Shown: positions 3,049 to 56,017 of the stretch, one piece after another
Layout of the letters: the number at the start of each line of letters is the position of its first letter
How positions within the stretch are numbered: the stretch's first letter is position 1
NCBI GenBank assembly: GCA_964459445.1
Contig: CAYWMP010000004.1
Location: 14,469-78,468, forward strand
DNA length: 64,000 nucleotides
Direction of reading: 5' to 3'
From: an uncultured Desulfobacteraceae bacterium
GTDB lineage: Bacteria > Desulfobacterota > DSM-4660 > Desulfatiglandales > HGW-15
The notes under the pieces: generated by a model
Databases searched by the model: none
Told to the model about the DNA's origin: nothing
The model's input: the letters and a program-made list of their open reading frames with translations, nothing else
Position numbers and translations under genes: made by a program

Positions 3049-3437
3049 GCATACAAATTTAGCTTTTTTAAGCTGGGCGAGAGCTCAGCAATCTCTTTAC
3101 AGGGACGAAAGGTCTTTGAAGCAGTGCAGAAGGCGTTGCAAGCCAGCGGGCGGGGTGATGACTTTAAGGGAATCTGAGATCATCTTCCGGCACACTGTTG
3201 AGATAGTTCACCGCCCGCCATACTAAAGCAATGTGCAGATGACTACTCACTGAATCAAGTTTGTCCCTTCCAAGAGATCCCCAAGCTCTCGCTCTCAGAG
3301 ACATACTTTCAAAAGGCTAAAGTATAATAAATGAGCCAAGGACTGATTTATCCCGCGCATTCATCGACAGATTGGAATCCGTTGGTTATGTCCAACAAGG
3401 GCCATTCCAAAAACTGAAATGTTCCTGAGGATCTCAT

Positions 3438-4574
3438 TTGGAAAAAAGCGACACATTAGATCGACTCATTGAAGAGTCCCGTGTCTTCCATTGCGTGGAT
3501 TGCGGGAAGTGCACAGGAGCGTGCCCCCTAGCCCAGGTCGACAGGGATTTTTCCCCAAGGCTTATTGCTCGACACGTTATTGAAGAAGGGCTTGGGTCCG
3601 AATATATTCGAGAAAGGGTCTGGTCCTGTCTCACATGCGGCCTTTGTGATGAAAGGTGTCTTCAGGGGATTCCTTTCACGCATTTCATACGGAACCTACG
3701 CCTGCTTTTAAAAGAGTATGAAGAGGCCGGGCATCTCAGTCATGGCGGCTGCTTGCAAGGATTGATGCGCATGCAAACGGCCCTTAGCTTGAATCAGAGT
3801 CGTCTGGACTGGATCTCTCCTGATCTGAAGATATCCTCTCAGGGCGAAATTCTCTATTTTGTGGGTTGCCTCTCATTTTTCAATCGGTTTTTCCCCGAGA
3901 TGGATTTGGACCTGTTGAGGATTGCCGTCGACACGGTAAGAATTCTTAACGGGCTGGGCATTGAACCGGTTGTCCTGCCAAATGAGCGGTGTTGCGGTCA
4001 TGACCTCATTTGGACCGGGGATGAGTTGAACTTTCAAAGGCTTCGACGCATCAATATGGAGTCCTTCAAAAAGGCGGGAGCCAAGACGATCATCACGGCC
4101 TGCGGGGAGTGCAGTTATGTCTTGGGACATCTCTATCCGCAGGCCTCGGATGCCTTTCCCTTTGAGGTGATGCACCTGAGCGAATTCCTCAGACAAAGGG
4201 GTTTTAATGGGCAGAAAAGTCTGGGCAAGACCGTGACCTATCAGGATCCCTGCCGGTTGGGACGTTTTCAGGGCATTTATGAGGCGCCCAGAGAACTCCT
4301 CGGGTCGATTGCGCAGGTTCGCGAGATGCCCCACTTTGGTCCTGGGGCTTGGTGTTGCGGGAACTCCTCCTGGCTTCACTGCGATCGGTTCAGCAAGCAG
4401 ATGCAAGTTGAACGTCTCATGGAGGCCAAAGGCACCAAGAGCGATCTGGTCGTGACGGCCTGTCCCAAGTGCCAGATTCATCTAACCTGCGCCATGAGCG
4501 ATGTAAACCGATTGCAGGACCTTCACATTGATATTCAGGATATGGCCACCGTCTTGGCCGAAACAATGGCATGA
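3438..4574 (+). CDS. hdrD: HdrD-like heterodisulfide reductase (2x[4Fe-4S] plus two CCG domains)
   Basis: CVDCGKCTGACP and CLTCGLCDERC ferredoxin motifs, then CCG motifs RCCGHD and WCCGNS. TTG start is uncertain. Confidence 0.75.
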   Translation: MEKSDTLDRLIEESRVFHCVDCGKCTGACPLAQVDRDFSPRLIARHVIEEGLGSEYIRERVWSCLTCGLCDERCLQGIPFTHFIRNLRLLLKEYEEAGHLSHGGCLQGLMRMQTALSLNQSRLDWISPDLKISSQGEILYFVGCLSFFNRFFPEMDLDLLRIAVDTVRILNGLGIEPVVLPNERCCGHDLIWTGDELNFQRLRRINMESFKKAGAKTIITACGECSYVLGHLYPQASDAFPFEVMHLSEFLRQRGFNGQKSLGKTVTYQDPCRLGRFQGIYEAPRELLGSIAQVREMPHFGPGAWCCGNSSWLHCDRFSKQMQVERLMEAKGTKSDLVVTACPKCQIHLTCAMSDVNRLQDLHIDIQDMATVLAETMA

Positions 4575-4643
4575 ACTGTTACCATAAACTCCGATTTTTT
4601 TGTATAGATCTCAGGACCAAAGATATTACAAGGAGGGCCTTTC

Positions 4644-7112
4644 ATGACCCATTTGAAGACCGTGAGTACATCGGAGGAGGAAATCCGAATAGGGGTCTAC
4701 GTTTGCGAATGTGGGTTGAACATCGCTAATGCCGTGGACTGCGAGGCCACTGCCCAATGGGCGAATGATCTCGAGGGCGTGGTCGTCTCGCGGCACTATT
4801 CCTATATGTGCTCCGATCCCGGTCAACAGCTTGTGAAACAGGATATCGGTGATAATAGGCTAAACCGAATTGTTGTGGCCTCTTGCTCTCCAAGGCTTCA
4901 TGAACCCACCTTCCGGCAGATGTGCAAGGAGGCCGACCTGAATCCATACCTCCTGGAAATGGCCAACATCCGCGAACAATGCTCATGGGTCCATCCCCAT
5001 CAAAGGATGGAGGCCACGGAAAAGGCCAAAGATCTGGTCAATATGGCTGTAGGCCGTGCAAGGTTGCTGAAATCCCTCAAGGAGCAGGAGGTGCCCGTCA
5101 CACAAAAAAGCCTGGTTATAGGCGGTGGCGTGGCTGGGATTCAAGCTGCTCTCGATCTGGCCGACATTGGTTTTCATGTCTATCTCGTTGAAAAGAAGCC
5201 TTCCATCGGCGGTGTCATGGCTCAACTGGACAAGACCTTTCCGACCATGGATTGTTCCATCTGAATTCTTGGTCCGAAGATGACGGATGTCGGTCGACAT
5301 CCCAACATTGAGCTGATGACCCTGAGCACGATAAAGGACGTAAAGGGATATGTTGGCAACTTCGAAGTGACGGTCCAAAAAAGGGCACGGTTCGTGGGTG
5401 AGGGGGAGTGCACGGCCTGCGGTGATTGTGCGAAGGTCTGCCCGGTATTGAAGCCGGATGAATTCGAATTGGGCCTGGCTTCACGGAAAGCCATATTCAC
5501 GCCCTTCCCACAGGCCGTACCGTCAGCCTATGTATTGAATCCCTCAGAGTGCCTTGGCCAGAATCCTCTAATCTGCGGTAAGTGTAAAGAGGCCTGTGAG
5601 AAGGGTTGCATTGATTACGATATGAAAGACGAGGAGGTGACTTTCAAAGTAGGCACCCTCGTTGTGGCGACGGGAATGACGCCCTATGATCCCACAGCCT
5701 TGGATGAATACGGCTATACCCGTTTTTCGAACGTCTTGACGACCATGGAGTTTGAGCGACTGATCAACGCAGGAGGACCGACAAAAGGGGAGGTGATCCG
5801 CCTCAGCGATCTCAGAGTTCCCAAATCAGTCGCCTTCATCCAATGCGTAGGTTCGAGATCCCCTGGAAACGAAAAGGCAAATCCCTACTGCAGCAATATC
5901 TGCTGTATGAATACGATCAAAGACACCCTTATGCTGAAGGAGCATTATCCGGATATGGAGGTAAAGGTCTTCTATATTGATATCCGGGCCTTCGGCAAGG
6001 GCTTTGAGGACCTTTTCCAACGCTCCAAGGGCAAGGGAGTCAAGTACATCAGGGGACTTCCTGGAGACGTGCAGGCAGATCCCGCTTCTCGCGATCTGCT
6101 CCTTTTCGTGGAGAACACCGCGACCGATCGCCTGGAAAAGCATTCCGCGGAGATGGTTGTGCTCTCCCAGGGGCTGGTGCCCTCGGAAGACATGAACAAG
6201 ATCCAGGAGATGCTGGCTCTGCAAAAGACATCGGATGGTTTCTTTCTCGAGGCCCATCCGAAGTTGCAACCCGTCGATTCCGCTTCAAAGGGCATTTTTT
6301 TCGCGGGCACGGCAGAGTCTCCGAAGGACATAAAAGACGCCGTCACACAGGCCTCCGCAGCAGCCTCCAGAGCGGCCAGAATCATGTCACCCGGCAAGAT
6401 TACGGTCGAGGCGCTTACGAGTCGTGTGGATGAGAGCAAGTGTAATTCCTGCGGCATCTGCGCCAAGGTCTGCCCCTATAACGCCATCACGGTAGATAAA
6501 AAGAACAAAACGCCGGCCGTGGTGATCGAGGCTGCATGTGCCGGGTGCGGCACCTGCGGAGCCGAGTGCCCCCATGATGCCATAGAGATGAATCATTACA
6601 GCGATGCTCAGATTATGGCACAAGTCCAGGCGATATTAGAGGACAATTCGGATGAGAAGGTCGTCTGCTTTGCATGCAATTGGTGCTCCTACGCAGGAGC
6701 TGATTCCGCCGGAATAGCGCGTCTGAGTTATCCCCCCAATGTGCGCCTGATCCGAACCATGTGTTCCGGCAGGGTAGACGAGAAATTCATTTGGAGGGCT
6801 TTCGAGATGGAGGCACCCGTTGTTTTGGTTTCAGGCTGCCATTTTGGAGATTGCCACTATATTGACGCGAACCACTGGACCAAGAGGAGAATCGAAAAAA
6901 TCTGGAGAAGGATGGTTAAATGGGGGCTGAGGAAGGAACGCCTTCAATTGGAGTGGATCAGCGCTTCTGAAGGCGTACGTTTCTCTCAGGTCATGGCCAA
7001 GATGGAAGAGCTTCGAAAAACGGTGACGCGAGAAGAGATAGAAGAAACGAAAAAGGCGCTCCGGGACAACCTCAAGGGCAAAAATAAAAAGGCCGGTCCG
7101 ATGAGCAAGTAA
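4644..7112 (+). CDS. hdrA: Heterodisulfide reductase subunit A with C-terminal MvhD domain. Selenocysteine is encoded by the in-frame TGA at 5262-5264.
   Basis: ORFs 4644-5264 and 5280-7112 are in one frame, joined through TGA: ..[23 protein letters not shown]... Also [22 protein letters not shown], four CxxCxxCxxxCP motifs, and a C-terminal [21 protein letters not shown] MvhD module. Confidence 0.85.
5285..5302 (+). promoter_or_regulatory. Candidate bacterial SECIS apical hairpin for the hdrA UGA
   Basis: 7-bp stem GGATGTC/GACATCC with a GGTC loop, starting 23 nt after TGA 5262-5264. Confidence 0.6.
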
Positions 7113-7122
7113 GCATGGGGTA

Positions 7123-9337: not shown

Positions 9338-9342
9338 CGTAT

Positions 9343-11874: not shown

Positions 11875-12081
11875 TTATTAATTCATTCCACGGATTTCTA
11901 AAGCCTACAAATATCGTGCCTAGTAGGGACTAAAATGAAATAGATCGCATCAAGACGAAACATTAAACATCGTCGTTGGGATGTCAAACCGTAGTGGCGT
12001 GAATTTTACACATGACTTAAAGGAGAATTGGAGAGATTTCAAGGATATTGTGACGGGGCGCAAATATTTTGCGCCCAATAG

Positions 12082-12368
12082 GGTTCAAGGTTGGACGGTT
12101 CAAAGTTCAAGGTTAAAGAAAAACAAAAATCGACTTGTTTCAAAATTTTAGTGATCTTTCAAATTGATGGTCATTGATGCTATTTATTGGCGCATAATCT
12201 GTTTCGAGCATTAAGAAAAAGGTATCCCCCCGTTCAAAGATGTCGCTTGCGCTGAGATGATAAAACCCTCGTATCTGACTAAGCAACGCTGGAGTCAGTT
12301 TTTTGATCAAACTGGCCGCTTAGGCGGCCAGAGGCGGCGCTGAACCTTGAACGCTGAACCTTATAACC
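12082..12368. repeat. Stutter-word inverted arms (ggttcaagg / ccttgaacc words) enclosing a ~220-bp interior
   Basis: Left arm 12082-12115 (ggttcaaggttggacggttcaaagttcaaggtt) is imperfectly complementary to right arm 12340-12368 (ctgaaccttgaacgctgaaccttataacc). Confidence 0.55.
12267..12345 (+). repeat. 79-bp perfect repeat, copy 1 (two terminator-like hairpins)
   Basis: Identical to 46914-46992. Hairpin CTGACT-N12-AGTCAG plus T6 at 12275-12304; hairpin CTGGCCGC-TTAG-GCGGCCAG at 12312-12331. Confidence 0.9.
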
Positions 12369-12380
12369 TAATTTGTCGCA

Positions 12381-13145
12381 TTATTTTTTTCGGTTTTCGA
12401 AAGTTTGGAGGGATTCCTGCCTTTCTTTTGTGGAGACGCAGGTCAAGCAGGCCTCAATTTCAAAATCCATGAGGGCATCGAGACTCACTTCGCCCCTCGC
12501 CATATTGAGGCCCTTTTTGATCATGGCAATAGAGAAGGCTGAATTTTCGGCGATCATTTTTGCCATAGCAACGGCCCCCTCCATCAGTTGATCAAGGGGA
12601 ACGGCTTTGTTGACGAGACCGATCCTTTCGGCCTCTTTTCCGTCAATGTTTTGTGCCGTGAAAAGAAGCTCTCTCGCCTTGCCCGGGCCCACTAAATCCT
12701 GCATGAGCCGAAAGGCGCCCCCAGTGATGGAAGAGGTCACACGGGCTTCGGGTGAGCCGATCTGGGCGTCTTCAGCGGCAATGCGTATATCACAGGCGAG
12801 GGCCAATTCATACCCTGACCCCAAGGCATAGCCGTTAATGGCGGCTATGGTGGGTTTTGGGAAGCGAATAATCCTTCGCGAGGTCTCCTGGAGTTCCACC
12901 AGATAGGCGCGATAATCCTCAATGCTCCTATCCTTTGATTCCTTCAGGTCAGCGCCCGTGGAAAAGGCCCTCCCTTCACCGGTGATAATGAGGGCCTTTA
13001 TCTGGGGATCATTTTCCACATCATCCAGGGCCGACTGAAAATCCAGCCATAGTTGTTTGTTCATGGCGTTTAATACTTTAGGGCGATGAAGCTTGATGAT
13101 GGCAAAATCCGCTTCTTTCTCATAGATGATGCATTCATAATCCAT
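12381..13145 (-). CDS. Enoyl-CoA hydratase/isomerase (crotonase) family protein
   Basis: KVLNAMN..ITGEGRAFSTGADLKE..INGYALGSGYELALACD. Confidence 0.85.
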   Translation of the reverse strand: MDYECIIYEKEADFAIIKLHRPKVLNAMNKQLWLDFQSALDDVENDPQIKALIITGEGRAFSTGADLKESKDRSIEDYRAYLVELQETSRRIIRFPKPTIAAINGYALGSGYELALACDIRIAAEDAQIGSPEARVTSSITGGAFRLMQDLVGPGKARELLFTAQNIDGKEAERIGLVNKAVPLDQLMEGAVAMAKMIAENSAFSIAMIKKGLNMARGEVSLDALMDFEIEACLTCVSTKERQESLQTFENRKK

Positions 13146-13426
13146 TCTTCATCTCCAGAGCCAATTTCAAAACGCCCGATTTTGGTCAATCTTCCGTCAT
13201 CGCTATCCGCCGCCGCCAAGGCTGTGGCGAACAAGAAGCTACGACGGGACAAGCGGCGTCAGACTCAAATCTCAATCCTCAAAATACTACATGTATTCCT
13301 GCGGTTAAGATTTTCGTCTTCCTTGACCCAGGCCAAACTTGAACGTTTTGAAAATGCCTCGCAAAAGAAATCAATTTCATTAACATAGTTTAGGGTTCGA
13401 AGGTTTAATCTGAAAACCGGGACCGA

Positions 13427-21360: not shown

Positions 21361-21697
21361 GGGTTATAGCGGCCGCCTTGATGAGTGTGAACATTTATAT
21401 TCAGAGGAAAACATTTTGATTATTTTTTTTCAATTCAATTATTAATCTTAATTTCAATGATTTGTCAAGCAGTTTGATTGAAGGAAGAATTTTTTTTGAC
21501 CTGTATTTGCGATCACTTATGTATTCATCTGAAATCCCTTGAATTTTGGATCATCTAACCAGGCTTGACAGATCCCTGAGCTATCAGATACTTTCCAGTC
21601 CTTATATTTGGGATTCGCTAGATACTTATATTTGCCGTGTTTTTAAGATTTGAGTCAAGTCCCTATATGTTGTAGTGTAATATGGGAATAGATACTA

Positions 21698-21806
21698 GAT
21701 GCTGGTTTCTGGATGCTGGTCGAAGATTCCGTCTTTAGCGGAGATGTCGCAAGTAACGGTTCTTTTTTTGGTTTTATCCAGTATCGAGCATCGAGCAACC
21801 AGTATC
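21698..21806. repeat. Stutter-word hairpin (gatgctgg words)
   Basis: 21698-21719 pairs with 21785-21806: 18 Watson-Crick, 1 G-U and 3 mismatches over 22 positions, with a ~65-nt loop. Confidence 0.6.
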
Positions 21807-21845: not shown

Positions 21846-21879
21846 CCCGTCCTCCGCAGTAGCTTGCTACGGAGGGTGG
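21846..21879 (+). repeat. REP-like 34-bp palindromic element, copy 1
   Basis: cccgtcctccgcagtagcttgctacggagggtgg matches 23556-23589 at 31/34 positions. Internal CCTCC..GGAGG and GTAG..CTAC stems. Confidence 0.75.
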
Positions 21880-22019
21880 GTCGGTTTTCCCGTCCCCCAA
21901 CAAACAGGTTTCGGGACAGGAAGGCGTTGCTTCGTTAATGTGTTTGTTGGGTTCCAAACCTAATAGGGGGCGAATTTCAATCTCGTCGGTCATTTAAAAA
22001 AAGCCATTTGGAGGTGAAT

Positions 22020-23498
22020 ATGGACGGTGTCGTGGGTTTGTATGGGTTGAATGACAATGAATTGGTAGATAAAGCATACCTTTCGACCGGTGCCTGTCAG
22101 CACCGGGGCAAGGCCAGCACTGGGATGGCTATCGGAAACCGAAAGGGTATCTACATTCATAAAGGGCTTGGAAGGATTGCAGAGGTCATTGACCAAAACA
22201 TCATCAAATTTTTTAAGGGATTGGAGCCGGTGGCCGTCATCGGGAATATCGGTTACACAAAGAGAAAGGTCGCAGAGAAACTCAATGCCGAACCTGTAGA
22301 GATTCACCCAAAGGGCGGCAGTCGGTACCATCTCGTGTTAGCCATGGACGGTTATCTCATTAAAGAGGATGACCTAAAGGCGGAGCTTGAAACAGAATAC
22401 AGCCTACAGACAGACAACAAGACTGAAGTGGTTGGAGCCCTGCTGCACAAGTACATTGCCGAAGAGGGCATTACCTTCGGAGCGGGAGAAAGGCTCGTTG
22501 AGAAGCTGCATGGCAGGGCTACCTTCGCCTTAACGGCTCTGGTCCACGACGGCACGGAGATCTATTTGGTTGCCTTGAACGATGATCGGGCATTTGAGCC
22601 CTTCTGCTATGCAACCATAAACGGCACGTTCATAGCCAGTTCTGAGTCCTTTTCTCACAGGCGATTGAACGGTTTTACAGAGAGGGAATATGATGGTGCA
22701 GAGATGACCATTTGTTCTCCCAAGGGATTTGAAACAAAAAGGCTAAGGGAAGAGACCATGATGCCTGACATCTTCCAGGGCGTTTATTTCGGAAATGTGG
22801 CATCCCTTTTTAGGGGGAAGGAGATATTTCAAATAAGGAGAGAGTTGGGATTGGAACTCGTGAATCTCTATGGCGGCTCAAGGGCAGACATTGTTATCCC
22901 CAACCCGGAATCAGGTTGGGGGGTCACGGTCGGGATAGCGGAAGGTTTGGAAAAACCGCTCTTCCCTGCATTGATCAAGCTGCCTCAGGCGGTAAGGACA
23001 TTTCAGGAGGGAGAGAGGGCGGTAAGATCTCAGGAGGTTGGGCTTAAATTTGGGGGCATCGATTCGTTGCTCAGAGACCGAAGTATTGCCATGGGTGATG
23101 ACAGCATTGTGAGAGGAAGCGTGAGTGAGGGCGGGTCCGTATGGGTGGTCTACAATGCAGGCGCGCGGTATATTGAATTTTGGGTGTCTTACGGACCCAT
23201 GTTTTTTCCCTCCTTTAAGGAGTGGTATCGCGGGTCCGAATGCCTCCAGGAGTTGGCGGTCCAAAGGGCATTCAAGGGGGACAATCCCTACGACAAATCC
23301 CTGGAGGAGATCAATGCCGCCGTGGCGAAACTCGTGGGTGTGGATGAAGTCAAATACAATGCGCAGGAAAAAATAAATCGAGTCGCCGGTGACGGCTCTT
23401 TTCAGGCATTGGATGCAAGTTACCCGATCGAAGAGCAATACTGGCCGGATTGGTTAAAGGAAGAAGTGGAGAAATACCATTATCATAAAAAAGGATAG
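22020..23498 (+). CDS. Amidophosphoribosyltransferase (PurF)-like protein lacking the N-terminal Cys nucleophile
   Basis: ATG 22020 follows GGAGGTG. N-terminus is MDGVVGLYG versus the PurF MCGIVG. CQHRGKASTGMA is present. The PRTase loop IAMGDDSIVRGSV is conserved. Confidence 0.65.
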   Translation: MDGVVGLYGLNDNELVDKAYLSTGACQHRGKASTGMAIGNRKGIYIHKGLGRIAEVIDQNIIKFFKGLEPVAVIGNIGYTKRKVAEKLNAEPVEIHPKGGSRYHLVLAMDGYLIKEDDLKAELETEYSLQTDNKTEVVGALLHKYIAEEGITFGAGERLVEKLHGRATFALTALVHDGTEIYLVALNDDRAFEPFCYATINGTFIASSESFSHRRLNGFTEREYDGAEMTICSPKGFETKRLREETMMPDIFQGVYFGNVASLFRGKEIFQIRRELGLELVNLYGGSRADIVIPNPESGWGVTVGIAEGLEKPLFPALIKLPQAVRTFQEGERAVRSQEVGLKFGGIDSLLRDRSIAMGDDSIVRGSVSEGGSVWVVYNAGARYIEFWVSYGPMFFPSFKEWYRGSECLQELAVQRAFKGDNPYDKSLEEINAAVAKLVGVDEVKYNAQEKINRVAGDGSFQALDASYPIEEQYWPDWLKEEVEKYHYHKKG

Positions 23499-23555: not shown

Positions 23556-23589
23556 CCCGTCCTCGGCAGTAGCCTGCTACGGAGGATGG
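23556..23589 (+). repeat. REP-like 34-bp palindromic element, copy 2
   Basis: cccgtcctcggcagtagcctgctacggaggatgg, in the same orientation as copy 1. Confidence 0.75.
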
Positions 23590-23851
23590 ATTTTTATACT
23601 TGGAATTTGATACATGGATTTTGGGATTTTAAATCCATATCCATGTGCTATATTGTCTGTGTCCATTGCTCCTCCAATCCGTAGCAATTCTGCAATCGGA
23701 ATATCTCGACTGGCCGCCAAGGGCTCGCGCAAGGCCAAAGCCCGTTTTCCCCGAACAAGCCGAACAATCGCAAGCTGCTGATGCAGCGGGAAAGTGCGAA
23801 CGTAACGGCGAGTTCCGTTGTGAAAACCAAATTGAGGGCCAAAATATGTAC

Positions 23852-23880
23852 CTGAAAGGCTTGACAGTAACCGGGATTAG
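23852..23880 (+). promoter_or_regulatory. Candidate sigma70 promoter upstream of the second oxidoreductase cluster
   Basis: TTGACA at 23852-23857, a 16-nt spacer, then ACTAAT. The -10 is a weak match. Confidence 0.3.
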
Positions 23881-23915
23881 GGACTAATTATGAGTGTTTT
23901 ATCTCAGGATGCATT

Positions 23916-34344: not shown

Positions 34345-34360
34345 GGGCTTCGCCCCAATT

Positions 34361-34510
34361 GGAATGTTGGATGACTGGAATGATGGAAAAATGGGTTCAG
34401 GGAAAATGGGCAAATAGGTAGCTGGTTGAATTACTATGGATAAGGAAGTCATAAGCATTAAAAAGGGCATACTTCCTTAAAAAACCATCATTCCATTATT
34501 CCACCATTCC
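34361..34510. repeat. Stutter-word hairpin (ggaatg/cattcc words) inside the fdh-nuoF operon
   Basis: 34361-34386 pairs with 34485-34510 (22 of 26 positions; a perfect 10-bp core at 34377-34386/34485-34494). Inner 8-bp hairpin at 34442-34449/34471-34478. Confidence 0.7.
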
Positions 34511-34594
34511 ATAATTCCATGTTTGAGGCAAAAACACTTGGCCTCGTTAATTGCTTATAAGTTCAAAAAGTTGCAGAAATAGCGAGACGGTTAA

Positions 34595-35587: not shown

Positions 35588-35714
35588 AACCGGTTTCAGA
35601 AAAGAATTTGACCGGATAACAGGATAGACCAAATATGGGGACCCATGGGTCTGGTTCTTAATGTTGGAGAGAGAAAGGTCGAATTCAAACGTAAGGGCAG
35701 GGATCGGTTCTAAG

Positions 35715-35754
35715 CGATCAACAGGATAAAAAAATCAAATCAATCCTGTTATCG
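35715..35754 (+). repeat. Hairpin in the hndB-like/nuoF spacer (aacaggat word)
   Basis: cgat(c)aacaggat-N15-atcctgttatcg: 12 bp with one bulge. The word aacaggat also occurs near 35620. Confidence 0.6.
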
Positions 35755-35826
35755 TGTCGAAAAATATCTGAACTGTTATGGATATGCAGCATTGAAAGAC
35801 TGGCGGAGGAATGAGGAGGCCATAGA

Positions 35827-40192: not shown

Positions 40193-40277
40193 ACCTTCCG
40201 CTACATGAATCAGGACAAACAGGCGCTATCTTGAATTGGATAGCGTAAATGTGAACGGTATAAAAGGAAGTGGAAGG

Positions 40278-40447
40278 AAATACGAATATCGAAATTCGAA
40301 ACCCGAAACAATATCGAAAAAGAAATGTTTAAAATCCAAAACAAACGGATTAATCCAATATAGTCTAGAAGAGCTTGCATGTTTTGGCCATTTAGAATTG
40401 GATCATTGGTATTTGTTTCGTATTTCGAGTTTCGAATTTCGGATTTG
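40278..40447. repeat. Stutter-word hairpin (cgaaat/atttcg words) between the cytochrome c gene and rnfC
   Basis: Perfect 13-bp core 40290-40302 (cgaaattcgaaac) / 40429-40441 (gtttcgaatttcg), with degenerate flanking arms. Confidence 0.7.
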
Positions 40448-40538
40448 TGGTCAAGAAACCTCTGACCAACTTTGATTAAGTGCCAAATGTATGTTTGATG
40501 CTCCTGAGTTTTAAGGGAGCCGCGTCCAGGAGGAATAG

Positions 40539-41798
40539 ATGATAAAAAGACCATTCTTCTCCCTAACTAAAACCAGGATAGAATATCCAGCCCTAAAGGA
40601 GCCCTACGAGGAAACTGCCATCGAGATCCCTTTACCCAAAAGGGCGGCATTGTTTCTTGAAGATCCCGGCACGGCACTGACTGATCTTCATCTAAAGGAG
40701 GGTGATAGGGTAAGGACAGGGCAAAGAATAAAACTCTTTGAGGGGGAGCAAGAGCATTTTGTTTCAACGGTAACCGGAACCGTTTTTTCTATTGAACGAC
40801 AAACCGGATACCTGAAGCAACCCTATATAGAAATAACCATTGATGTAGATGACGATGAATGGGATGAAGAGTTCAATCAAGAGGACCAGACATTAAGCCT
40901 AACCCTTTCCGGCTTGCCCATCTTTGCCGATCTGTTCGAGCCCCAATCCTCTCTGAAGACGATTATCATCTGCGGCATCGATCGAGAACCCCTTGTTAGG
41001 ACCAATCAGATCACTGTGCTCCAGGAATTTGAGCTTTTAAAGGACGGCATTGATTATCTGAAAGGCGCAGTAAACGGAAGCCGGATTATCCTCATAGTTC
41101 CGGCGCACATAGAGTTTATGGGACAGCAATCGGGGGTCGAGGTGCAGGCGTTAAACCCTCTTTATCCCAATGCCCTGCCTGAATTGGTTGTTAAAGCGAT
41201 TCTGGGTAGGGAGGTGCCTGCCGGCAAGTGTCCAGAAGACATCGGGGTCAAGTTTGTCAGCGCGGATGCGGTAGTCAAACTTGCGAAAGCCCTTAAGGAT
41301 GGCGAAATGCCTGTTCACCAGAGGCTCACGGTGATCGACAAGAAAGGCAACACCTTTCTGGTAAAGGCCCGGATCGGAACGCCCGTGCAGGATATCCTTG
41401 AAAACCTTCAAATTGAAACGGCCCATGGAGACAGACTTATCCTGGGTGGCCCCATGTCCGGAAAACCCATATTATCTGAGGATTTTCCCGTGCTTCAGGG
41501 CATGAACGCCGTCATGGTCCAGGATAGGAGCGAGATCATATTGAGCACCGACACCCACTGTGTGAACTGCGGGGAGTGCGTGAGGGCCTGTCCTGCTAAG
41601 ATTCCGGTCAATATGTTGGTGCGACTCCTAGAAAACGGGCTCTTTGAAGAGGCGGCCGATCAGTATGACATGTTGTCCTGTATTGAATGCGGGCTTTGCA
41701 GCTACGTGTGCACCGCGCGGATACCAATATTTCATCACATCACGCTCGGCAAGTATGAGTTGTTGCAGATAAGAACTGCGGAGGAAGCCAATGCTTAA
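40539..41798 (+). CDS. rnfC: RnfC-like subunit lacking the flavin/NADH glycine-rich loop
   Basis: N-terminal barrel GDRVRTGQRI, SLBB-like RLTVIDKKG..ARIGTPVQDIL, LILGGPMSG, CVNCGECVRACP and CIECGLCSYVC. No GGxGAGFP-type motif is present. Confidence 0.75.
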   Translation: MIKRPFFSLTKTRIEYPALKEPYEETAIEIPLPKRAALFLEDPGTALTDLHLKEGDRVRTGQRIKLFEGEQEHFVSTVTGTVFSIERQTGYLKQPYIEITIDVDDDEWDEEFNQEDQTLSLTLSGLPIFADLFEPQSSLKTIIICGIDREPLVRTNQITVLQEFELLKDGIDYLKGAVNGSRIILIVPAHIEFMGQQSGVEVQALNPLYPNALPELVVKAILGREVPAGKCPEDIGVKFVSADAVVKLAKALKDGEMPVHQRLTVIDKKGNTFLVKARIGTPVQDILENLQIETAHGDRLILGGPMSGKPILSEDFPVLQGMNAVMVQDRSEIILSTDTHCVNCGECVRACPAKIPVNMLVRLLENGLFEEAADQYDMLSCIECGLCSYVCTARIPIFHHITLGKYELLQIRTAEEANA

Positions 41799-44603: not shown

Positions 44604-44706
44604 ATTCGGTTTTAAAACCCGACCTGTTCAGTTAAGTTTAGTTAAGGTTGAGTGGTTCAACTTTCCCGTTTGAAAATTGTTATACCATTTGAACCCTGAA
44701 CCGAAT
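44604..44706. repeat. Nested inverted repeats in the rnfA-rnfB spacer
   Basis: attcggtt 44604-44611 / aaccgaat 44699-44706, plus inner ggttcaa 44654-44660 / ttgaacc 44689-44695. Confidence 0.5.
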
Positions 44707-46803: not shown

Positions 46804-46913
46804 GGAAGCGAAGCTCCGCCTCAAGTCTTATGCCCACCTTCAGCGACGAAAGTCGTCAAATAATCTATCTTTTTGGTTTCAAGTTTCGGGTTTCAGGAAA
46901 GCAACGGCTGACA

Positions 46914-46992
46914 CCTCGTATCTGACTAAGCAACGCTGGAGTCAGTTTTTTGATCAAACTGGCCGCTTAGGCGGCCAGAGGCGGCGCTGAAC
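46914..46992 (+). repeat. 79-bp perfect repeat, copy 2, between convergent rnfB and rseC-like genes
   Basis: Identical to 12267-12345. Hairpin plus T6 at 46922-46951; GC-rich hairpin at 46959-46978. ctgacacct occurs at 46908-46916 and again at 46994-47002. Confidence 0.9.
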
Positions 46993-47063
46993 ACTGACAC
47001 CTATTCTCTTTTTTCATCCAGCGTCCAAGAACCGGCATCGCGTATCAACTAGTGCACGAAACT

Positions 47064-50837: not shown

Positions 50838-50954
50838 GTCGGTTTTGTAAAGCTCTTAACTTGATTTATAGAGAATGAGGCTTTAACATTAGCAAATATT
50901 TTCGCTTACCAAAGTTGATCGGTTTAATTTTGAAGACCCTAACTGGTAAACCGT

Positions 50955-50985
50955 AACCCTTGAACCCTTGAACCCTTGAACCCTG
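50955..50985 (+). repeat. Tandem 8-mer stutter (aacccttg x3 plus degenerate copies) upstream of def
   Basis: aacccttg at 50955, 50963 and 50971, then aaccctg and aacctta. Confidence 0.8.
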
Positions 50986-51006
50986 AACCTTAAACAAGGT
51001 TTTGAC

Positions 51007-51516
51007 ATGTCGGATAAATTTAAAATACTCACCTACCCTGAACCTGTCCTAAGAATAGAGACTGAACCCATCTCGGACATTGACGAAGATATTCAGGACC
51101 TCGTGGACGGCATGGCTGAAACCATGTATGCGGCGCCGGGCATCGGTCTGGCCGCCAATCAGGTTGGTGAGTCGAAACGGATTCTCATTTATGATCTTAC
51201 CCCAAAGGAAGACGGCCGAAAGCTCTCCGTTATTATCAACCCTGAGATTGTCCTTGTTGAAGGGAGCATTCTGCATGAAGAGGCCTGTCTCAGCGTTCTG
51301 GACTATACGGCCGAGGTTAAACGCCACTCCCAGATAAAGGTTCGTGGTGTGGATAGAGACGGCAAGCCTGTGGACATCGAGGCCGAAGGGTTATTGGCTA
51401 TTTGCCTTCAGCACGAAATCGATCACCTTAACGGAAAACTTTTCATTGATCACATCAGCAGCCTCAAGAGAGCCCTGTACAAGAAAAAGCTGAAGAAGAT
51501 GCTCAAGAACGGGTAG
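51007..51516 (+). CDS. def: Peptide deformylase
   Basis: GIGLAANQVG, EACLS and HEIDHLNG. Confidence 0.95.
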   Translation: MSDKFKILTYPEPVLRIETEPISDIDEDIQDLVDGMAETMYAAPGIGLAANQVGESKRILIYDLTPKEDGRKLSVIINPEIVLVEGSILHEEACLSVLDYTAEVKRHSQIKVRGVDRDGKPVDIEAEGLLAICLQHEIDHLNGKLFIDHISSLKRALYKKKLKKMLKNG

Positions 51517-51619
51517 GCCCCTGGAAGGTAAATTACCCCCAAGGAGCTAAGTTGTTTTACAAAATTCACGGATAAATTTATACCGTGCGGGTTTGTTGTA
51601 AGCTGAACGTTGAACATCG

Positions 51620-51789
51620 AACATTGAACGTCCAACGTCGAATGAAAAATAATCATCCAATATCGAATAATAAAGTGGCATTTCTTCTTGGCCGTTTTGA
51701 TACGTATTCACGAACAACCTTTATTCAGGATCATTAGTCTTTTTCTTTATCTTTTTGAATTCAACATTCGATGTTGGGCGTTCGATGTT
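51620..51789 (+). repeat. Long stutter-word hairpin in the def-fmt spacer (25 contiguous pairs)
   Basis: 51620-51644 pairs with 51765-51789: 22 Watson-Crick plus 3 G-U pairs on the + strand, no mismatches, 120-nt loop. Confidence 0.8.
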
Positions 51790-51856
51790 AATATTTTCGG
51801 GAAACCACCGATCGTCCTTCCATTACAAGATTAGTTCAGTATAACGGCGATTAAAA

Positions 51857-52834
51857 ATGATGTCCCATTCTAAAGAGAACTTTCCCCGTAACCCAAAACT
51901 GATATTTATGGGAACGCCCGATTTTGCGGTGCCCACATTGGAGGCTCTTATTGAAGGGGGATATGATATCCACGCGGTGGTCACGCAGCCCAATAGACCG
52001 AAGGGAAGAGGGAAGAAGATGGCGGCGCCGCCCATTAAGGCGCTGGCCGTAGAAAAACGCCTGAAAGTGCTGCAACCGGAAAAGGCTTCGGATCCCCATT
52101 TCTGTGAATTGATCAAGGGCGAGAATCCTGACCTCATTATCGTGGTTGCCTTTGGGCAGATATTAAAGAAAAATCTGCTGGAAATACCTCATTGGGGTGT
52201 TCTCAATATCCATGCCTCTCTTTTGCCCGAATACCGGGGCGCCGCCCCGATACAACGGGCCATCATGAACAATGAACAAAACACGGGTTTGACCATCATG
52301 CAGATGGATGAGGGGTTGGATACGGGGCCGATCCTATTTCAAGAAAAAGTCCCCATCATGGAGGACGAAACCGCAGGCCAATTGCATGATCGGCTCGCTG
52401 CCATAGGTGGAGGCTTCATGGTCAGGTTTTTAAGGCAGACGGCCGGGAAGCCCCTCTCAGGAAATTCGCAGGATGGCACAAAGGCTACCTATGCAGGAAA
52501 GATTGAGCGCCGACATTGCCTGATTGATTGGCGGGACAAGGCCGTAAAAGTGTGCGCCCACATCAGGGGCCTTGATCCGATTCCCGGCGCACGCACAATC
52601 CTCGATAGCAAGGAATTGAAGCTTTTCTCCGCCACTGTAGTGGATGAAGGGCGCTCCGGCGGTGTTCCGGGGACGGTGTTGGGACACGAAGAGAAAAGAC
52701 TGCTTGTGCAAACCGGGAAAGGCATCGTGGGGATGAGCGAGATCCAGTATCCGGGAAAAAAAAGACTTCCTGTGGTTGATTTTTTAAGGGGATTTTCCTT
52801 ACCAGAGGGGACGGTATTCGGAGTCAATAAATAG
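51857..52834 (+). CDS. fmt: Methionyl-tRNA formyltransferase
   Basis: FMGTPDFAVPTL..VVTQPNRPKGRG..NIHASLLPEYRGAAPIQ. Confidence 0.95.
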   Translation: MMSHSKENFPRNPKLIFMGTPDFAVPTLEALIEGGYDIHAVVTQPNRPKGRGKKMAAPPIKALAVEKRLKVLQPEKASDPHFCELIKGENPDLIIVVAFGQILKKNLLEIPHWGVLNIHASLLPEYRGAAPIQRAIMNNEQNTGLTIMQMDEGLDTGPILFQEKVPIMEDETAGQLHDRLAAIGGGFMVRFLRQTAGKPLSGNSQDGTKATYAGKIERRHCLIDWRDKAVKVCAHIRGLDPIPGARTILDSKELKLFSATVVDEGRSGGVPGTVLGHEEKRLLVQTGKGIVGMSEIQYPGKKRLPVVDFLRGFSLPEGTVFGVNK

Positions 52835-52996
52835 ATACGGAAATTGAACCATTCTTGGAAGGCCCGAGCGTATTTTCGGACATATCAATTTAAGTTTCAA
52901 AGTGCATTTGTTTAAGCGGGGGCTCGGGGATCAAAAAGAAATGGCATAAGGCAAAGGGTATGGGGCACAAGGAAGAAATTTTTTGCCTTGAGCCTT

Positions 52997-53022
52997 AGGC
53001 CTTAATCCCTAGGCCTTTTTTT
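52997..53022 (+). terminator. Candidate intrinsic terminator/attenuator after fmt
   Basis: AGGCCT-N8-AGGCCT stem followed by a T7 run. Preceded by a stutter hairpin at 52961-52997. Confidence 0.45.
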
Positions 53023-53032
53023 ATTTGTCCCC

Positions 53033-54445
53033 GTGAAGAGATTGTTGAGTCCCCGCTTATTGAGAAGTTCTAATTGCTGCCATGGATGGATATTGGACAA
53101 GCCACGGGACATAGCACTGAAAGTACTGGATCGGCTGTCATTAAAACAACAGCCAAACGCATACCTTTTGGACGAGGCCCTTGGCAATCAAGATCAATTG
53201 GATGCCAGGGACAGGGGCTTTATTATCCATTTGGTCCAGGGTGTTCAACGCTGGCGGCTTCGGCTCGATTGGATCATCGGGCAGGCCGTTCATTTCCCCC
53301 TAAGAAAGATTACGCCCCGGAATCTAAATATTCTCCGGCTCGCCCTCTATCAAATCTACTTTATGGACAAGGTACCTGAATCCGCCGCAGTCAATGAAGC
53401 AGTGAAACAGGTGAAGGTCCGCGAGTCTAAGCATGTGGTTTCTTTTGTAAATGGGGTTCTCAGAAACATTTGCAGAAACAAGGACGATTTCTCTTTCCCC
53501 GATCCAAAGAAAGATCCTATAGGGTATCTTTCAACCTTCTTTTCATATCCGGAGTGGCTGGTAAAAAAGTGGACAAGAGAACTTGGAAAGGATACCGCAC
53601 AGGACCTTTTGGAGGCGGGAAATAGAGTCCCAAAGCTTATTGTCAGAACGAACACTCTGAAAATCAATCGAACGGCCTTGATAGAGCGGCTCAAACAAGA
53701 AAATGTTGTGGGAATACCAACGCCAAAGGCTCCGGACGGCATCTTCTTGGAAGGACTTAAAGGAAGGATAGACGGTCTAAATACCTTTCGGGAAGGGCTG
53801 CTTCAGGTCCAGGGCCAGGCAACACAACTCATGTCCCATCTCCTGGCGCCCCAACCGAGGGATTCAGTGCTCGACGTATGCGCCGGATTAGGGGGCAAGG
53901 CCGGTCATATGGCAGAACTCATGCAAGGGCGGGGAAATGTTCTCGCCCTTGACATAAGCGCAAGGAGGCTGATAGACCTTGCGAGGAACTCAGAAAGGCT
54001 CGGAATTCATAACATCGATCCGGTTGTAGCAGATGCGGCTTTTGGTCTGTCGTCGCTTATTCGGTGCCGGTTTGATGGAATTATGGTAGATGCACCCTGC
54101 TCGGGGCTTGGAGTCCTTTCTAGGCATCCCGACGGTAAATGGAACCGGGATGTAAAGGACATCAAACGTCTGGCTAGGTTACAGAAGACGATATTGAAGG
54201 GCGCAGCTTCCGTCCTCAAAAAGGGGGGGAGGATGTTGTATGTGACCTGTACGATTTCAAAAGAGGAGAACGAAGAAGTCGTAGAGGACTGCCTTGAGAG
54301 AAACAAGGATCTGGAATCAATAAATCTTGCCTATGACGCCCCTGTTTGGGCTCGGCCTCTTGTCAATAGGGAAGGTTTTTTTCAGTCCTATCCCCATATC
54401 CATGAAATGGACGGCCTTTTTGCAGCGCTGTTTACAAAAAGCTAG
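53033..54445 (+). CDS. rsmB: 16S rRNA (cytosine967-C5)-methyltransferase
   Basis: NusB-like N-terminal region, DVCAGLGGKAG (SAM motif), DAPCSGLGV and TCT. Start is uncertain. Confidence 0.85.
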   Translation: MKRLLSPRLLRSSNCCHGWILDKPRDIALKVLDRLSLKQQPNAYLLDEALGNQDQLDARDRGFIIHLVQGVQRWRLRLDWIIGQAVHFPLRKITPRNLNILRLALYQIYFMDKVPESAAVNEAVKQVKVRESKHVVSFVNGVLRNICRNKDDFSFPDPKKDPIGYLSTFFSYPEWLVKKWTRELGKDTAQDLLEAGNRVPKLIVRTNTLKINRTALIERLKQENVVGIPTPKAPDGIFLEGLKGRIDGLNTFREGLLQVQGQATQLMSHLLAPQPRDSVLDVCAGLGGKAGHMAELMQGRGNVLALDISARRLIDLARNSERLGIHNIDPVVADAAFGLSSLIRCRFDGIMVDAPCSGLGVLSRHPDGKWNRDVKDIKRLARLQKTILKGAASVLKKGGRMLYVTCTISKEENEEVVEDCLERNKDLESINLAYDAPVWARPLVNREGFFQSYPHIHEMDGLFAALFTKS

Positions 54446-54455
54446 CATAGAGCAA

Positions 54456-54476
54456 GGAGCATGGAGCATGGAGCAT
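54456..54476 (+). repeat. Tandem 7-mer stutter (ggagcat x3) in the rsmB-rpe spacer
   Basis: ggagcat at 54456, 54463 and 54470, then ggagcaa. A second word series taatggctaatgaccaatgactaat lies at about 54528-54552. Confidence 0.8.
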
Positions 54477-54565
54477 GGAGCAAAGAAAGGTTTTTTGATT
54501 CAGCCCGAGCATCCAAACCACAAATGTCTAATGGCTAATGACCAATGACTAATACGGAGAAGAAT

Positions 54566-55219
54566 ATGAAGAAGATAGCACCCTCAATACTCTCGGCTGA
54601 TTTTTCAAGGCTAGGGGAAGAAGTGCAGGCGGTTGAGAAGGCAGGCGCGAACTATATCCATGTTGATGTCATGGACGGCCATTTTGTCCCCAATATTACG
54701 ATTGGGCCACTGGTGGTGAAAGCGGTACGACGAGTTACAAAATTGCCCCTTGATGTCCATTTGATGATTTCAGATCCCGATCATTTTACTGAGGAATTTG
54801 TGAAGGCCGGTTCAGATTCCCTCACGGTCCATGCCGAGGCCGTAGACCACCTGCACAGATCAATTCAGCACATTAGAAAGCTTGGGGCGAAGCCGGCTGT
54901 ATCATTAAACCCTGCAACACCTATTGAAGCGATTGAATATGTCCTGGATGATGTGGATATGGTCCTGTTGATGACCGTGAATCCCGGTTTCGGCGGTCAA
55001 GCATTTATATCTAATATGATACCGAAGATCGAACGACTGAAAGGGATGATAGATCGGAGGGGTTTGGATGTTGACATCGAGGTTGACGGCGGCATTAGTC
55101 CCAATACCATAGGCCCAGTGTCTGAGGCAGGCGCCAATGTTTTTGTGGTGGGTTCGGCGATATTTGGCAGCGAAGACTATGGTGCAACCATCCGTCTCAT
55201 GAGAGAAAAAATGGGCTGA
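54566..55219 (+). CDS. rpe: Ribulose-phosphate 3-epimerase
   Basis: [37 protein letters not shown] 54566 follows GGAGA. Confidence 0.95.
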
Positions 55220-55323
55220 AAACCCTTTGACTCCTTAGTGAGGAAGTATTAATATCCACTTTTTTGTAGCATGCTACTAGCAACAAGCTAATAGCAACCA
55301 GTAAATCGCTGTGGCGATTTCCC

Positions 55324-55411
55324 GGAGGGATGGCCGAGTGGTTGAAGGCGGCGGTCTTGAAAACCGTTGTCCCGAAAGGGACCGTGGGTTCGAATCCTAC
55401 TCCCTCCGCCA
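55324..55411 (+). tRNA. tRNA-Ser (anticodon UGA), CCA encoded
   Basis: Acceptor GGAGGGA/TCCCTCC, anticodon loop CTTGAAA, long variable arm GTCCC-GAAA-GGGAC, T loop TTCGAAT. Confidence 0.9.
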
Positions 55412-55438
55412 AGAAATCCAGTTTTACAGGATTTCACT

Positions 55439-55889
55439 TGTGGCTAGTAGCTTTTGGCATTTAACTGAGTGGAATTGTGGTTATTAGGGTAGCAATTGAA
55501 GCGCTTCAGATTCAAAGAGTTTCGCGTCTATCAAGATGCCAAAGAATACTGCAAGTACTGCCGCGATATTGTAAAAAGGCATATAGAGAAAAAGGATAAG
55601 GGTCTTTCTGATCAGCTAGGAAGGGCGCTCAATTCTATTGTTCTTAATATAGCAGAGGGATCAGGTGATAATTCCGACGCCGAATTCGCGAGGTTTCTAG
55701 GAATCTCAATTCGGTCTGTCTACGAAACTGTTGCTGGTTTTGATCTAGCCACACTTTATGAACTCATAGACAATAATCTGAATGATGATATTGAAGAAAG
55801 GGCTCACAAGCTAGTAAAGCAACTCGTATCATTCAGAAAAAAGCTGAAGGAATAAATTGTAAGCTACTGGCCGAGGGCCAATAGCCACA
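55439..55889 (+). repeat. Hairpin cassette enclosing the four-helix-bundle gene
   Basis: tgtggcta 55439-55446 pairs with tagccaca 55882-55889. gtagctt 55447-55453 pairs with aagctac 55861-55867. The bulge 55868-55881 folds as TGGCC-GAGG-GCCA(A). Confidence 0.65.
55496..55855 (+). CDS. Four-helix-bundle protein (23S rRNA intervening-sequence protein / Avd-like family)
   Basis: FKEFRVYQDAKEY.., ..ALNSIVLNIAEGSG..., FARFLGISIRSVYET match the family pattern. TTG start. Confidence 0.75.
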   Translation: MKRFRFKEFRVYQDAKEYCKYCRDIVKRHIEKKDKGLSDQLGRALNSIVLNIAEGSGDNSDAEFARFLGISIRSVYETVAGFDLATLYELIDNNLNDDIEERAHKLVKQLVSFRKKLKE

Positions 55890-56017
55890 GGTGGCCTATA
55901 GCTTATGGCATGTGGCTTAAAGGGGAATAGGAGCAAGTCAATTAGAGATTAGACAGCGAAAAAAAAGCTACTGGCTAATAGCCAATAGCTACCAGTGTTT
56001 CGCATCAGCGAAACCGC

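Follow-up and report, generated by a model that had tools for sequence, protein, structure and literature searches.

Predicted stems built from inverted heptamer stutters in operon spacers of an uncultured Desulfobacteraceae bacterium, and their likeness to the shells of four-helix-bundle genes

In a 64,000-nt chromosome segment of an uncultured Desulfobacteraceae bacterium (GenBank assembly GCA_964459445.1, contig CAYWMP010000004.1, positions 14,469 to 78,468; hereafter the window), many spacers between genes carry a short word repeated in tandem, here called a stutter, together with a complementary stutter with which it can pair into a long stem. To judge from the sequence, these hairpins are a real, lineage-typical class of stutter stem, with the design seen in the intervening sequences (IVSs) of bacterial 23S rRNA and in the repeat shells around genes for four-helix-bundle (4HB) proteins. 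The window stems are probably RNA-processing stems rather than chance sequence. To the fuller reading, in which the loci form a lineage-wide class of IVS-like spacer stems that are processed as double-stranded RNA and whose arms grow by mirrored slippage, we assign a probability of about 0.5.

Stutter stems in the spacers of the window

For each of the 29 window spacers of at least 60 nt, the best ungapped inverted repeat (loop of at least 10 nt, span below 400 nt) was compared with the best repeats in 100 dinucleotide-preserving shuffles of that spacer. In nine of the 29, the long-range inverted repeat equalled or exceeded at least 98 of the 100 shuffles (z 2.9 to 9.6), with arms at 3077/3260, 12088/12343, 13158/13333, 21698/21787, 34360/34485, 35607/35740, 40278/40413, 51620/51765, and 55273/55437. 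RNAfold gave long closing stems at these nine loci and added two more, at 52.96 kb (z −5.0) and 55.86-56.0 kb (z −4.0), the fold z-scores spanning −3.5 to −5. Every stutter word listed in a first-pass annotation of this DNA was found at its place on reading the sequence. That annotation had described long paired stems at these words and had named shuffled sequence of the same composition as the check on them. For most loci such shuffles do not yield similar stems, and chance is ruled out there; long stems are supported in the nine spacers and, by folding, at 52.96 kb, but not at 44.6 kb and 23.6 kb, where pairing was not significant.

The arms consist of short-period repeats that are largely confined to non-coding DNA. 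With a minimum of 2.8 copies, Tandem Repeats Finder detected ten period-7 or period-8 arrays across 7.8 kb of non-coding sequence and one across 56 kb of coding sequence, an enrichment of about 60-fold; one of the ten had first been labelled coding owing to a spurious open reading frame (ORF). The periods were 7, 8, and 14, the arrays typically held 3-6 units, and autocorrelation showed a sharp peak at lags 7 and 14 in the spacers only (0.571 vs 0.405). When the repeat units are aligned, about four positions are constant and three are variable. There are at least eight distinct word families within the 64 kb, which agrees with the proposal that each locus has a private word, but only in part: the GGTTCAA type, alone among them, recurs, with GGTTCA/GTTCAA clusters at five places (12.08, 12.34, 44.65, 50.96, and 51.61 kb), and several words recur in other genomes.

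The long stems do not match the form of an intrinsic terminator, namely a short GC-rich stem followed by a U run. Most of them are AU-rich with no U run after them, and the terminator form was matched only at 52997-53016, within an 84-nt dispersed core described below, and at 56123-56141. An enrichment inside operons cannot be asserted, since by our tally eight of the nine significant spacers are co-directional but about three-quarters of all spacers are too. In a duplex-energy test of each spacer against itself (duplexfold), full-length self-dimers dominated the signal.

The highest z-score (9.6) belongs to the spacer between the cytochrome c3 gene and rnfC, where an arm of NNN-CGAA units of period 7 (40278-40311; this and the stutter arms, long hairpins, tRNA genes, and 4HB gene given below are on the plus strand unless stated) is 82% complementary to TTTCGAA x4.4 (40413-40446). 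In the def-fmt spacer, a period-7 arm of GAACGTT/GAACATC units (51605-51644) faces the complementary arm CATTCGATGTTGGGCGTTCGATGTT (51753-51789; z 8.3). Both are among the normally contiguous gene pairs that such spacers had been said to split. Two further pairs fared differently: no hairpin was found in the 301 nt between korD and korA (p = 0.94), genes that overlap in the related locus L020, and the rnfA/rnfB spacer (44604-44706), with its GGTTCA-type words, shows only weak inverted pairing (p 0.25, fold z −0.9). The hairpin at 12.1 kb lies between the echA-like 3' end and korD, i.e., upstream of korD, and pairs GGTTCAAG-type units (12080-12114, minus strand) with CGCTGAA/CTTGAAC units (12338-12369, minus strand) at 81% complementarity (p 0.01, z 5.4).

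Among the remaining paired loci, TGGAATGA x3.6 (34360-34388) and CCATCATT x4.5 (34485-34520) are 85% complementary (z 7.2); a GATACTA/GATGCTG arm (21691-21719, p 0.02), whose word family is also present in L022 at 5240-5320, pairs with CCAGTATC/GAGCATC (21778-21806); and an arm containing GGATAACAGGATAG (35607-35628) pairs with CAATCCTGTTATC (35740-35761; z 4.1). Two significant hairpins are poor in stutter, one a long rod-like structure with no clear stutter in the spacer between the mvhD-like and hdrB/C-like genes (3077-3292; z 4.8), the other a long structure that separates two minus-strand genes and shows little stutter (13158-13360, minus strand; z 5.6). In the fmt-rsmB spacer, which is the 52.96-kb locus added by folding, an AAGGC/AGGGT-type arm (52925-52972) is complementary to GCCTTAG x3.7 (52985-53032), and the latter contains the terminator-like hairpin and T run at 52997-53016.

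Other stutters form no long stem or stand apart. The GGATTTT type (23586-23623) makes a weak local hairpin that is indistinguishable from shuffles (z −1.6), and GGTTTCA x3.3 (46875-46897), absent from the earlier list, adjoins the second copy of the 84-nt core. AACCCTTG x4.5 (50955-50989) has no nearby partner and is the reverse complement of the GGTTCAAGG word family. In the rsmB-rpe spacer, GGAGCAT x5.6 (54444-54482) and CTAATGR x4.4 (54523-54553) are both unpaired, the second touching the rpe start codon. Three ORFs of 80-114 aa lie on or across stutter hairpins (40210-40554, minus strand; 13086-13388 and 23645-23887, plus strand); they are almost certainly spurious, and gene callers may annotate them.

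Four-helix-bundle genes and the arrays around them

One window locus carries a 4HB gene, as the first-pass annotation had noted. The gene (55496-55855, TTG start, 119 aa) belongs to the 23S rRNA IVS protein family: its product scores 80 bits against TIGR02436 (cutoff 24), PF05635 is precomputed for the identical protein, and the sole solved relative by sequence is XCC0516 (PDB 2gsc, E = 5e-4). It lies between tRNA-Ser(UGA) (55324-55411) and tRNA-Ser(GCU) (56018-56110), which were the only Rfam matches in the window at gathering thresholds, with no rRNA among them. A GCTAnnAGC-type stutter (55273-55301) stands 5' of the first tRNA gene and pairs with 55437-55451, enclosing that gene (z 4.9). 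The TGGCT/TAGCT arm at 55436-55458 has alternative pairings, since with 55273-55287 it encloses the first tRNA and with the complementary arm (GCTACTGGCC...CCAATAGCCACAGG; 55861-55892), which follows the 4HB stop codon, it encloses the 4HB ORF; the arms flanking the gene pair with p = 0.01. Further on, a GCTACTGGCTAATAGCCAATAGCTACCAG stutter (55967-55995) is followed by a leader hairpin (55997-56014) and the second tRNA gene. The region looks like one transcription unit, running from a promoter-like site (55227-55255) to a terminator-like site (56123-56141). Of the two small hairpins that adjoin the tRNAs, the trailer (55413-55435, GAAAnnnn..nnnnTTTC) lies directly 3' of the first and the leader, e.g., GTTTCGC ATCA GCGAAAC, directly 5' of the second. 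Both are also present in L020-L062, their letters changing between lineages while the pairing is kept, and in L022 the module of hairpin plus stutter is present four times.

A scan of metagenome contigs yielded 37 close homologues of the window's 4HB protein (62-76% identity), and all 37 are flanked by two same-strand tRNA-Ser genes, in the order UGA then GCU or CGA then GGA, with a single case of GGA then UGA. The same placement holds in six further loci (L020-L025), even with different outer genes, and overall the members of this tRNA-Ser-resident subfamily are 62-87% identical to the window's protein. Their common layout is tRNA, trailer hairpin, TRGC/TAAC stutter arm, ORF, complementary arm, leader hairpin, and tRNA. 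The arm words vary by lineage with the pairing maintained, and the arms pair across the ORF at about 18-20 of 32 close loci. Some relatives have no 4HB gene at this site: in L006 the two tRNA-Ser genes are separated by 17 nt, and in L002 the 135 nt between them hold a stutter remnant and no ORF. In L021, a 60-nt direct repeat lies on both sides of the gene. The 4HB protein is conserved better than Fmt, at 74% vs 62% and 70% vs 63% identity in the two genomes with both genes on one contig, and the window's protein is 70-87% identical to relatives in which Fmt is at most 66% identical; purifying selection is therefore indicated in the tRNA-Ser subfamily, of which no description was found in the literature.

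Association between 4HB genes and paired stutters, which had been put forward as a check on the hairpin family, is also found far from this subfamily. We collected 43 distant 4HB homologues (37-47% identity), mostly without a tRNA link, and in the 37 loci with enough flanking DNA compared 250 nt upstream with 250 nt downstream against 100 shuffles. An inverted match between the two flanks beat all 100 shuffles at 21 of the 37 loci, versus 7 of 94 other genes from these loci given the same test. The arms are mostly period-7 stutters with locus-specific words (ATAACTG, ACACCTA, TGACACT, GGTCTCC, GAGACCG, CGACAAC, AAAACTT, and TTGAGTA among them), and they usually lie 0-60 nt from the start or stop codon, many upstream arms being 0-15 nt from the start codon. 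Lag 7 is prominent in the 4HB flanks (0.616 vs 0.425), and a strict period-7 array occurs in a flank of 16 of 37 4HB loci vs none of 50 control pieces; flank arrays at lags 5, 6, 8, and 9 were found at 0-1 loci. On the sense strand of the upstream arm, RAC units outnumber GTY units 69 to 9 (17 loci vs 3), and this asymmetry indicates that the shell arrangement is oriented relative to the transcript.

Long perfect heptamer arrays also enclose 4HB genes that sit inside operons on cyanobacterial plasmids. On Nostoc edaphicum pNe_5 (L110), the 4HB gene separates nrdB from nrdA and has (AGTAGGG)x7 on one side and (CCCTACT)x5 on the other; on Pseudanabaena galeata pPg_01 (L109), it separates cas6 from cas4, with (AAAGCTA)x16 and (AAAGCCA)x10; and on a Calothrix PCC 7716 plasmid (L108), it lies in a toxin-secretion pair, with (TTAGCTG)x3. 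Intergenic heptamer repeats of cyanobacteria were reportedly described by Mazel in 1990 as short tandemly repeated repetitive (STRR) sequences, and the plasmid cases link these classical repeats to 4HB genes. At another locus (L063), units of the TAACTGA type surround a 4HB gene; TAACTGA arrays adjoin start codons in Beggiatoaceae, cyanobacteria, and Bacteroidetes (PMC4679880). In Xanthomonas, GGGAATC heptamer arrays form 70-75 inverted pairs (PMC4692102), and the paper describing them does not mention xcc0516/S23. The STRR arrays, the GGGAATC/GGGGAYT arrays of Xanthomonas and Nostoc, and the TAACTGA arrays resemble the window stutters in having period 7, in lying between genes, in having few to many units, and in varying between close relatives. 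They differ in that one or a few words are used per genome (e.g., CCCCAGT), while the window's words are locus-specific and usually paired, and in that the window's host is a Desulfobacterales-type bacterium. The first-pass annotation did not recognise the pattern as a described repeat family; heptamer arrays as such are known from cyanobacteria, Xanthomonas, Beggiatoaceae, and the hmw genes of Haemophilus influenzae, yet no paper was found that ties heptamer arrays in general to 4HB genes.

The closest precedent for the whole arrangement is the 23S rRNA IVS with an S23p ORF, of the kind seen in Coxiella, Leptospira, Brucella, and Xanthomonas. In Coxiella, RNase III cuts the 28-bp terminal stem of the IVS, and just upstream of its S23p ORF lie three tandem GACAGAT heptamers, whose number varies between strains (PMC4990558). 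The likeness to the window elements comprises the following: (i) terminal inverted repeats that pair over about 25-40 bp and may enclose a 4HB ORF; (ii) the existence of ORF-less IVSs too; and (iii) a 4HB protein from the same family (S23p/PF05635), although an ORF in the loop is present in just one window cassette (55496-55855). The differences are that the window elements interrupt mRNA operons and a tRNA-Ser operon instead of rRNA, and that the window's 4HB gene is strongly conserved while the Coxiella ORF is decaying. Avd, the accessory protein of diversity-generating retroelements, is a pentameric four-helix bundle of PF05635 that binds nucleic acid and reverse transcriptase. It shares fold and family with the window's protein, but the latter stands alone in a tRNA operon, with no reverse transcriptase, template, or variable repeat nearby.

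Related genomes and dispersed repeats

The window is a Desulfobacterales-type chromosome segment with HdrA/MvhD-like and 2-oxoacid:ferredoxin oxidoreductase genes, followed by a TmcA-like cytochrome c3 gene, rnfCDGEAB, def-fmt-rsmB-rpe, and the two tRNA-Ser genes. Its Def protein has exact copies only on short Logan contigs, whose identity to the window is 99.8-100%. Near-identical strains aside, the next-best match of its Fmt is 66% identical, and the closest GTDB representatives are Desulfobacteraceae metagenome-assembled genomes (MAGs) at 55-62%.

The def-fmt junction can be compared across these relatives. The two genes overlap or lie less than about 10 nt apart in five of them (L001-L003, L020, and L021). 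Between them the window has 340 nt with the GAACGTT hairpin, L004 about 170 nt with a hairpin of CAAGGATT/ATCCTTGG stutters, whose words are unlike the window's, L005 about 220 nt with another G-rich/C-rich inverted repeat, and L009 about 450 nt with nested inverted repeats. Presence/absence polymorphism is thus shown directly at one intra-operon site; such polymorphism, which had been asked for as evidence of gain and loss, is seen at the orthologous tRNA-Ser sites as well. L004 and L009 are sister lineages in which the outer parts of the spacer align, and the arms have one unit each in L009 and 2-2.6 units on both sides in L004. This is a direct case of mirrored in-situ stutter growth in one genome pair, and it gives partial support, at the def-fmt arms of these two sister MAGs, to the suggestion that the hairpins are locally generated. 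Comparison of L009 (1960-2380) with L004 (9830-9990) further shows an extra insert of about 300 nt in the loop of L009's homologous hairpin, with an inverted repeat of its own (GGGGCAAGGGGGTCTCTTTTTAG / CTAAAAAGAGACCCCCCTGCCCC).

Arrays of period 7 or 8 are present in most related Desulfobacterales loci, and none was found in the four Eubacteriaceae or Bdellovibrio control loci. Several of the window's words recur in relatives at non-homologous sites: the GATACTGG/GATGCTGG family in L022, AAGGATTC in L004, L006, and L020, GGAGCAT in L020, and TTTCGAN in L022. Tight G-rich/C-rich stutter hairpins with a period of about 6 were also observed in the related MAGs L021 (2873-2930) and L005 (3400-3520, 7700-7745), and downstream of rpe in L021, (TCACCC)x4.3 is immediately followed by its complement.

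Searches for direct and inverted repeats in the window found no arm common to the loci, save the 84-nt core and a 34-nt pair. The core (no strand assigned) occurs at 12267-12350, inside the 12.1-kb hairpin, and at 46914-46997, the copies being 98% identical. It contains two terminator-like hairpins (CTGACT..AGTCAG + T6 and CTGGCCGC..GCGGCCAG), both copies sit at the 3' ends of minus-strand genes, and a scan of JGI metagenome contigs gave 0 matches. The second copy is bracketed by a 9-nt direct repeat, CTGACACCT (46908-46916, 46994-47002), beyond which no consistent target-site duplication, the mark of a miniature inverted-repeat transposable element (MITE), was found. The 34-nt palindromic element, CCCGTCCTCCGCAGTAGCTTGCTACGGAGGGTGG, is present at 21846-21879 and 23556-23589 in copies that are 91% identical and that bracket a purF-like gene (22008-23498) in direct orientation. 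A hairpin near 14160-14200 of L006 resembles it by eye; a pattern search of the fetched loci gave no match with the one pattern used, and the family is unconfirmed.

Logan contigs of the same population (L013, L016, L018, L019, and L106) end at these elements. Of seven short-read contigs, four stop precisely where the left arm of the def-fmt hairpin meets its loop (51641-51643), and other ends fall at 46973, inside the 84-nt core, and at about 56087, in the tRNA/stutter region. Such ends at stems suggest population variation, loop inversion, or a drop in coverage. Elsewhere in the window, an in-frame TGA (5262-5264), possibly a selenocysteine codon, divides the HdrA-like gene into two ORFs (4644-5264 and 5280-7112).

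Processing stems and competing explanations

Under the reading that we favour, each element would consist of paired inverted short-period arrays (mostly of period 7, sometimes 8) that fold together into a long stem with mismatches at regular intervals, closing a loop of 60-230 nt or a cargo. The window would then hold one complete cassette, tRNA-Ser(UGA)-arm-4HB ORF-complementary arm-tRNA-Ser(GCU), and about ten ORF-less stems between protein-coding genes whose spacers are short in related genomes, these stems being IVS-like stems inserted into, or grown in, operon spacers. The stems would be co-transcribed with their operon and act as double-stranded RNA sites for processing or stability, most likely as RNase III substrates, so that cleavage would separate or excise segments of polycistronic or tRNA precursors. 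Slippage during replication would add or remove 7-8-nt units in one arm, and compensatory selection or template switching across the hairpin would mirror the change in the other; pairing would be kept while the word drifts, and the words would therefore look private. Processing and mirrored slippage together would explain the private words, the units of four constant and three variable positions, and the difference between L004 and L009.

RNA-level cleavage of the window stems is something we infer by analogy with the IVS, for which RNase III excision is known (PMC4990558), and with the hmw1/2 genes of H. influenzae (PMC12721329). In the hmw1/2 5' untranslated region, RNase III cuts a hairpin in which one arm is a heptamer simple sequence repeat (SSR), and change in repeat number requires RNase III and transcription (PMC12721329). 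An SSR arm within a long, RNase III-cleaved RNA hairpin is a worked example of the mechanism proposed here. The hmw case differs in being a single locus type that serves as a phase-variation switch in a promoter or leader, in having a G-rich, non-repeat right arm, and in having at least 11 perfect units, compared with 3-6 degenerate units on both arms in the window.

Several observations weigh against this reading. At the RNA level, G-U versus A-C mismatches on the sense strand number 22 and 13, only a mild skew, and both strands fold about equally well relative to shuffles, a comparison that is confounded by G+U richness. When the 4HB flank test was run on duplex energies, it was weaker and noisier, with 15 of 32 and 9 of 37 loci beating all 40 shuffles. 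The stutters at 50.96, 54.44, and 54.52 kb have no partner, and the arms of ORF-less stems lack the RAC-unit asymmetry and the TRGC words of the 4HB shells. No 4HB remnant was detected in any window spacer, ORF-less hairpins included, or in the relatives' def-fmt inserts. Moreover, gain or loss of the window's own hairpins cannot be dated since, near-identical strains apart, Fmt identity to any relative does not exceed about 66%. With no ORF remnant detected and no RAC asymmetry in the ORF-less arms, an origin of those hairpins from 4HB cassettes is unproven. Thus, of the proposal that these loci are footprints or empty shells of an IVS-like element, the architecture stands (complementary stutter arms, the flank-test excess at distant 4HB loci, and the Coxiella heptamers), but the footprint and empty-shell part is not shown.

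A broader version of the IVS-like reading can be offered only tentatively. It holds that STRR, GGGAATC, and TAACTGA arrays and the window hairpins are one IVS-like class, whose complete form would carry a pentameric, Avd-like 4HB gene, whose stems the 4HB protein would recognise or maintain, and of which ORF-less hairpins would be non-autonomous derivatives. The 4HB protein may in that case place, e.g., one subunit on each 7-nt unit, or it may govern how RNase III reaches the stems or how the repeats expand, and one subfamily may have become a fixed, conserved resident of tRNA-Ser operons.

Of the rival explanations, that of a neutral by-product survives best, although we consider it unlikely. 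The stutters would be heptamer or octamer microsatellites produced by slippage, with no link to IVSs or 4HB genes, and some would be kept as terminator hairpins or as mRNA-stabilising hairpins like repetitive extragenic palindromic (REP) sequences and bacterial interspersed mosaic elements (BIMEs). This would suit the unpaired stutters, the absence of the 4HB-shell unit motif from ORF-less arms, the terminator-like features of the 52.96-kb arm and the 84-nt core, and the general over-representation of heptamer SSRs in bacteria, possibly through polymerase slippage (PMC4692102, citing Mrazek 2007). However, a complementary word lies 60-230 nt away at no fewer than eight loci, which independent slippage cannot give; the stems are not reproduced by shuffles, most are AU-rich with no following U run, and the same period and design encloses 4HB genes far more often than control genes.

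Somewhat less probable again is that the loci are MITE- or REPIN-like non-autonomous elements, with the stutter arms as terminal inverted repeats, moved by a transposase or by a 4HB-bearing master copy. Mobility could account for the two near-identical core copies and the 9-nt repeat around one of them, the word families (GATACTGG, AAGGATTC, GGAGCAT, and TTTCGAN) at non-homologous sites elsewhere, the nested insert in L009, the direct repeat around the 4HB gene of L021, and the short-read contigs that break at these elements. Imperfect palindromes in spacers, including intra-operon ones, are likewise typical of REP, BIME, and REPIN sequences, which can stabilise upstream mRNA and, in REPINs, form hairpins from doublets. 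REP families, however, consist of one conserved sequence of about 20-40 nt in hundreds of copies tied to a REP-associated tyrosine transposase (RAYT), whereas the window arms are locus-specific and internally repetitive, unlike one another within the same genome. No consistent target-site duplications occur, JGI metagenomes gave no match to the core, and no catalytic activity is known for 4HB proteins. No transposase or RAYT is nearby, RAYT being absent from the scanned genes and from the Pfam calls of neighbouring loci in a window that is only partly annotated, and the mirrored gain of units in L004/L009 needs no transposition.

We regard as improbable a third alternative, in which the arrays are protein-binding sites, each 7-nt unit being bound by one subunit of an oligomer (a pentameric 4HB toroid, S1, or a CsrA-like protein) that controls translation or DNA transactions, with the hairpin secondary. 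The constant-plus-variable make-up of the units, their typical number of 3-6, the RAC strand asymmetry, and upstream arms that adjoin 4HB start codons, as TAACTGA repeats adjoin theirs (PMC4679880), would all fit, as would the homopentameric toroid formed by the Xanthomonas S23p protein XCC0516 (PMC4990558, citing Lin 2006). Yet with words that vary so widely and one 4HB gene in 64 kb, a single sequence-specific binder cannot explain the arrays, and complementary partners and covariation argue that pairing itself is maintained. Chance similarity in low-complexity sequence, which would cover the 44.6- and 23.6-kb loci, is very improbable for the class given the nine spacers that equal or exceed at least 98 of 100 shuffles, the fold z-scores, a lag-7 signal confined to spacers, and the presence of the class in related genomes and its absence from the Eubacteriaceae and Bdellovibrio controls.

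STRR-type heptamer arrays have been known since 1990 without an accepted function, and the "IVS protein" or stand-alone Avd-like 4HB family is large and has no known function. The two are now tied statistically, in that 4HB genes are typically enclosed by inverted period-7 arrays; this association of 4HB genes with heptamer stems in general, and the tRNA-Ser-resident 4HB subfamily, are what is new here. In practical terms, short-read assemblies break at these stems, and spurious ORFs arise from them. Stems of this design but with no ORF populate intra-operon spacers of a Desulfobacterales-type genome, and they may offer a general way of dividing polycistronic and stable-RNA precursors into segments.

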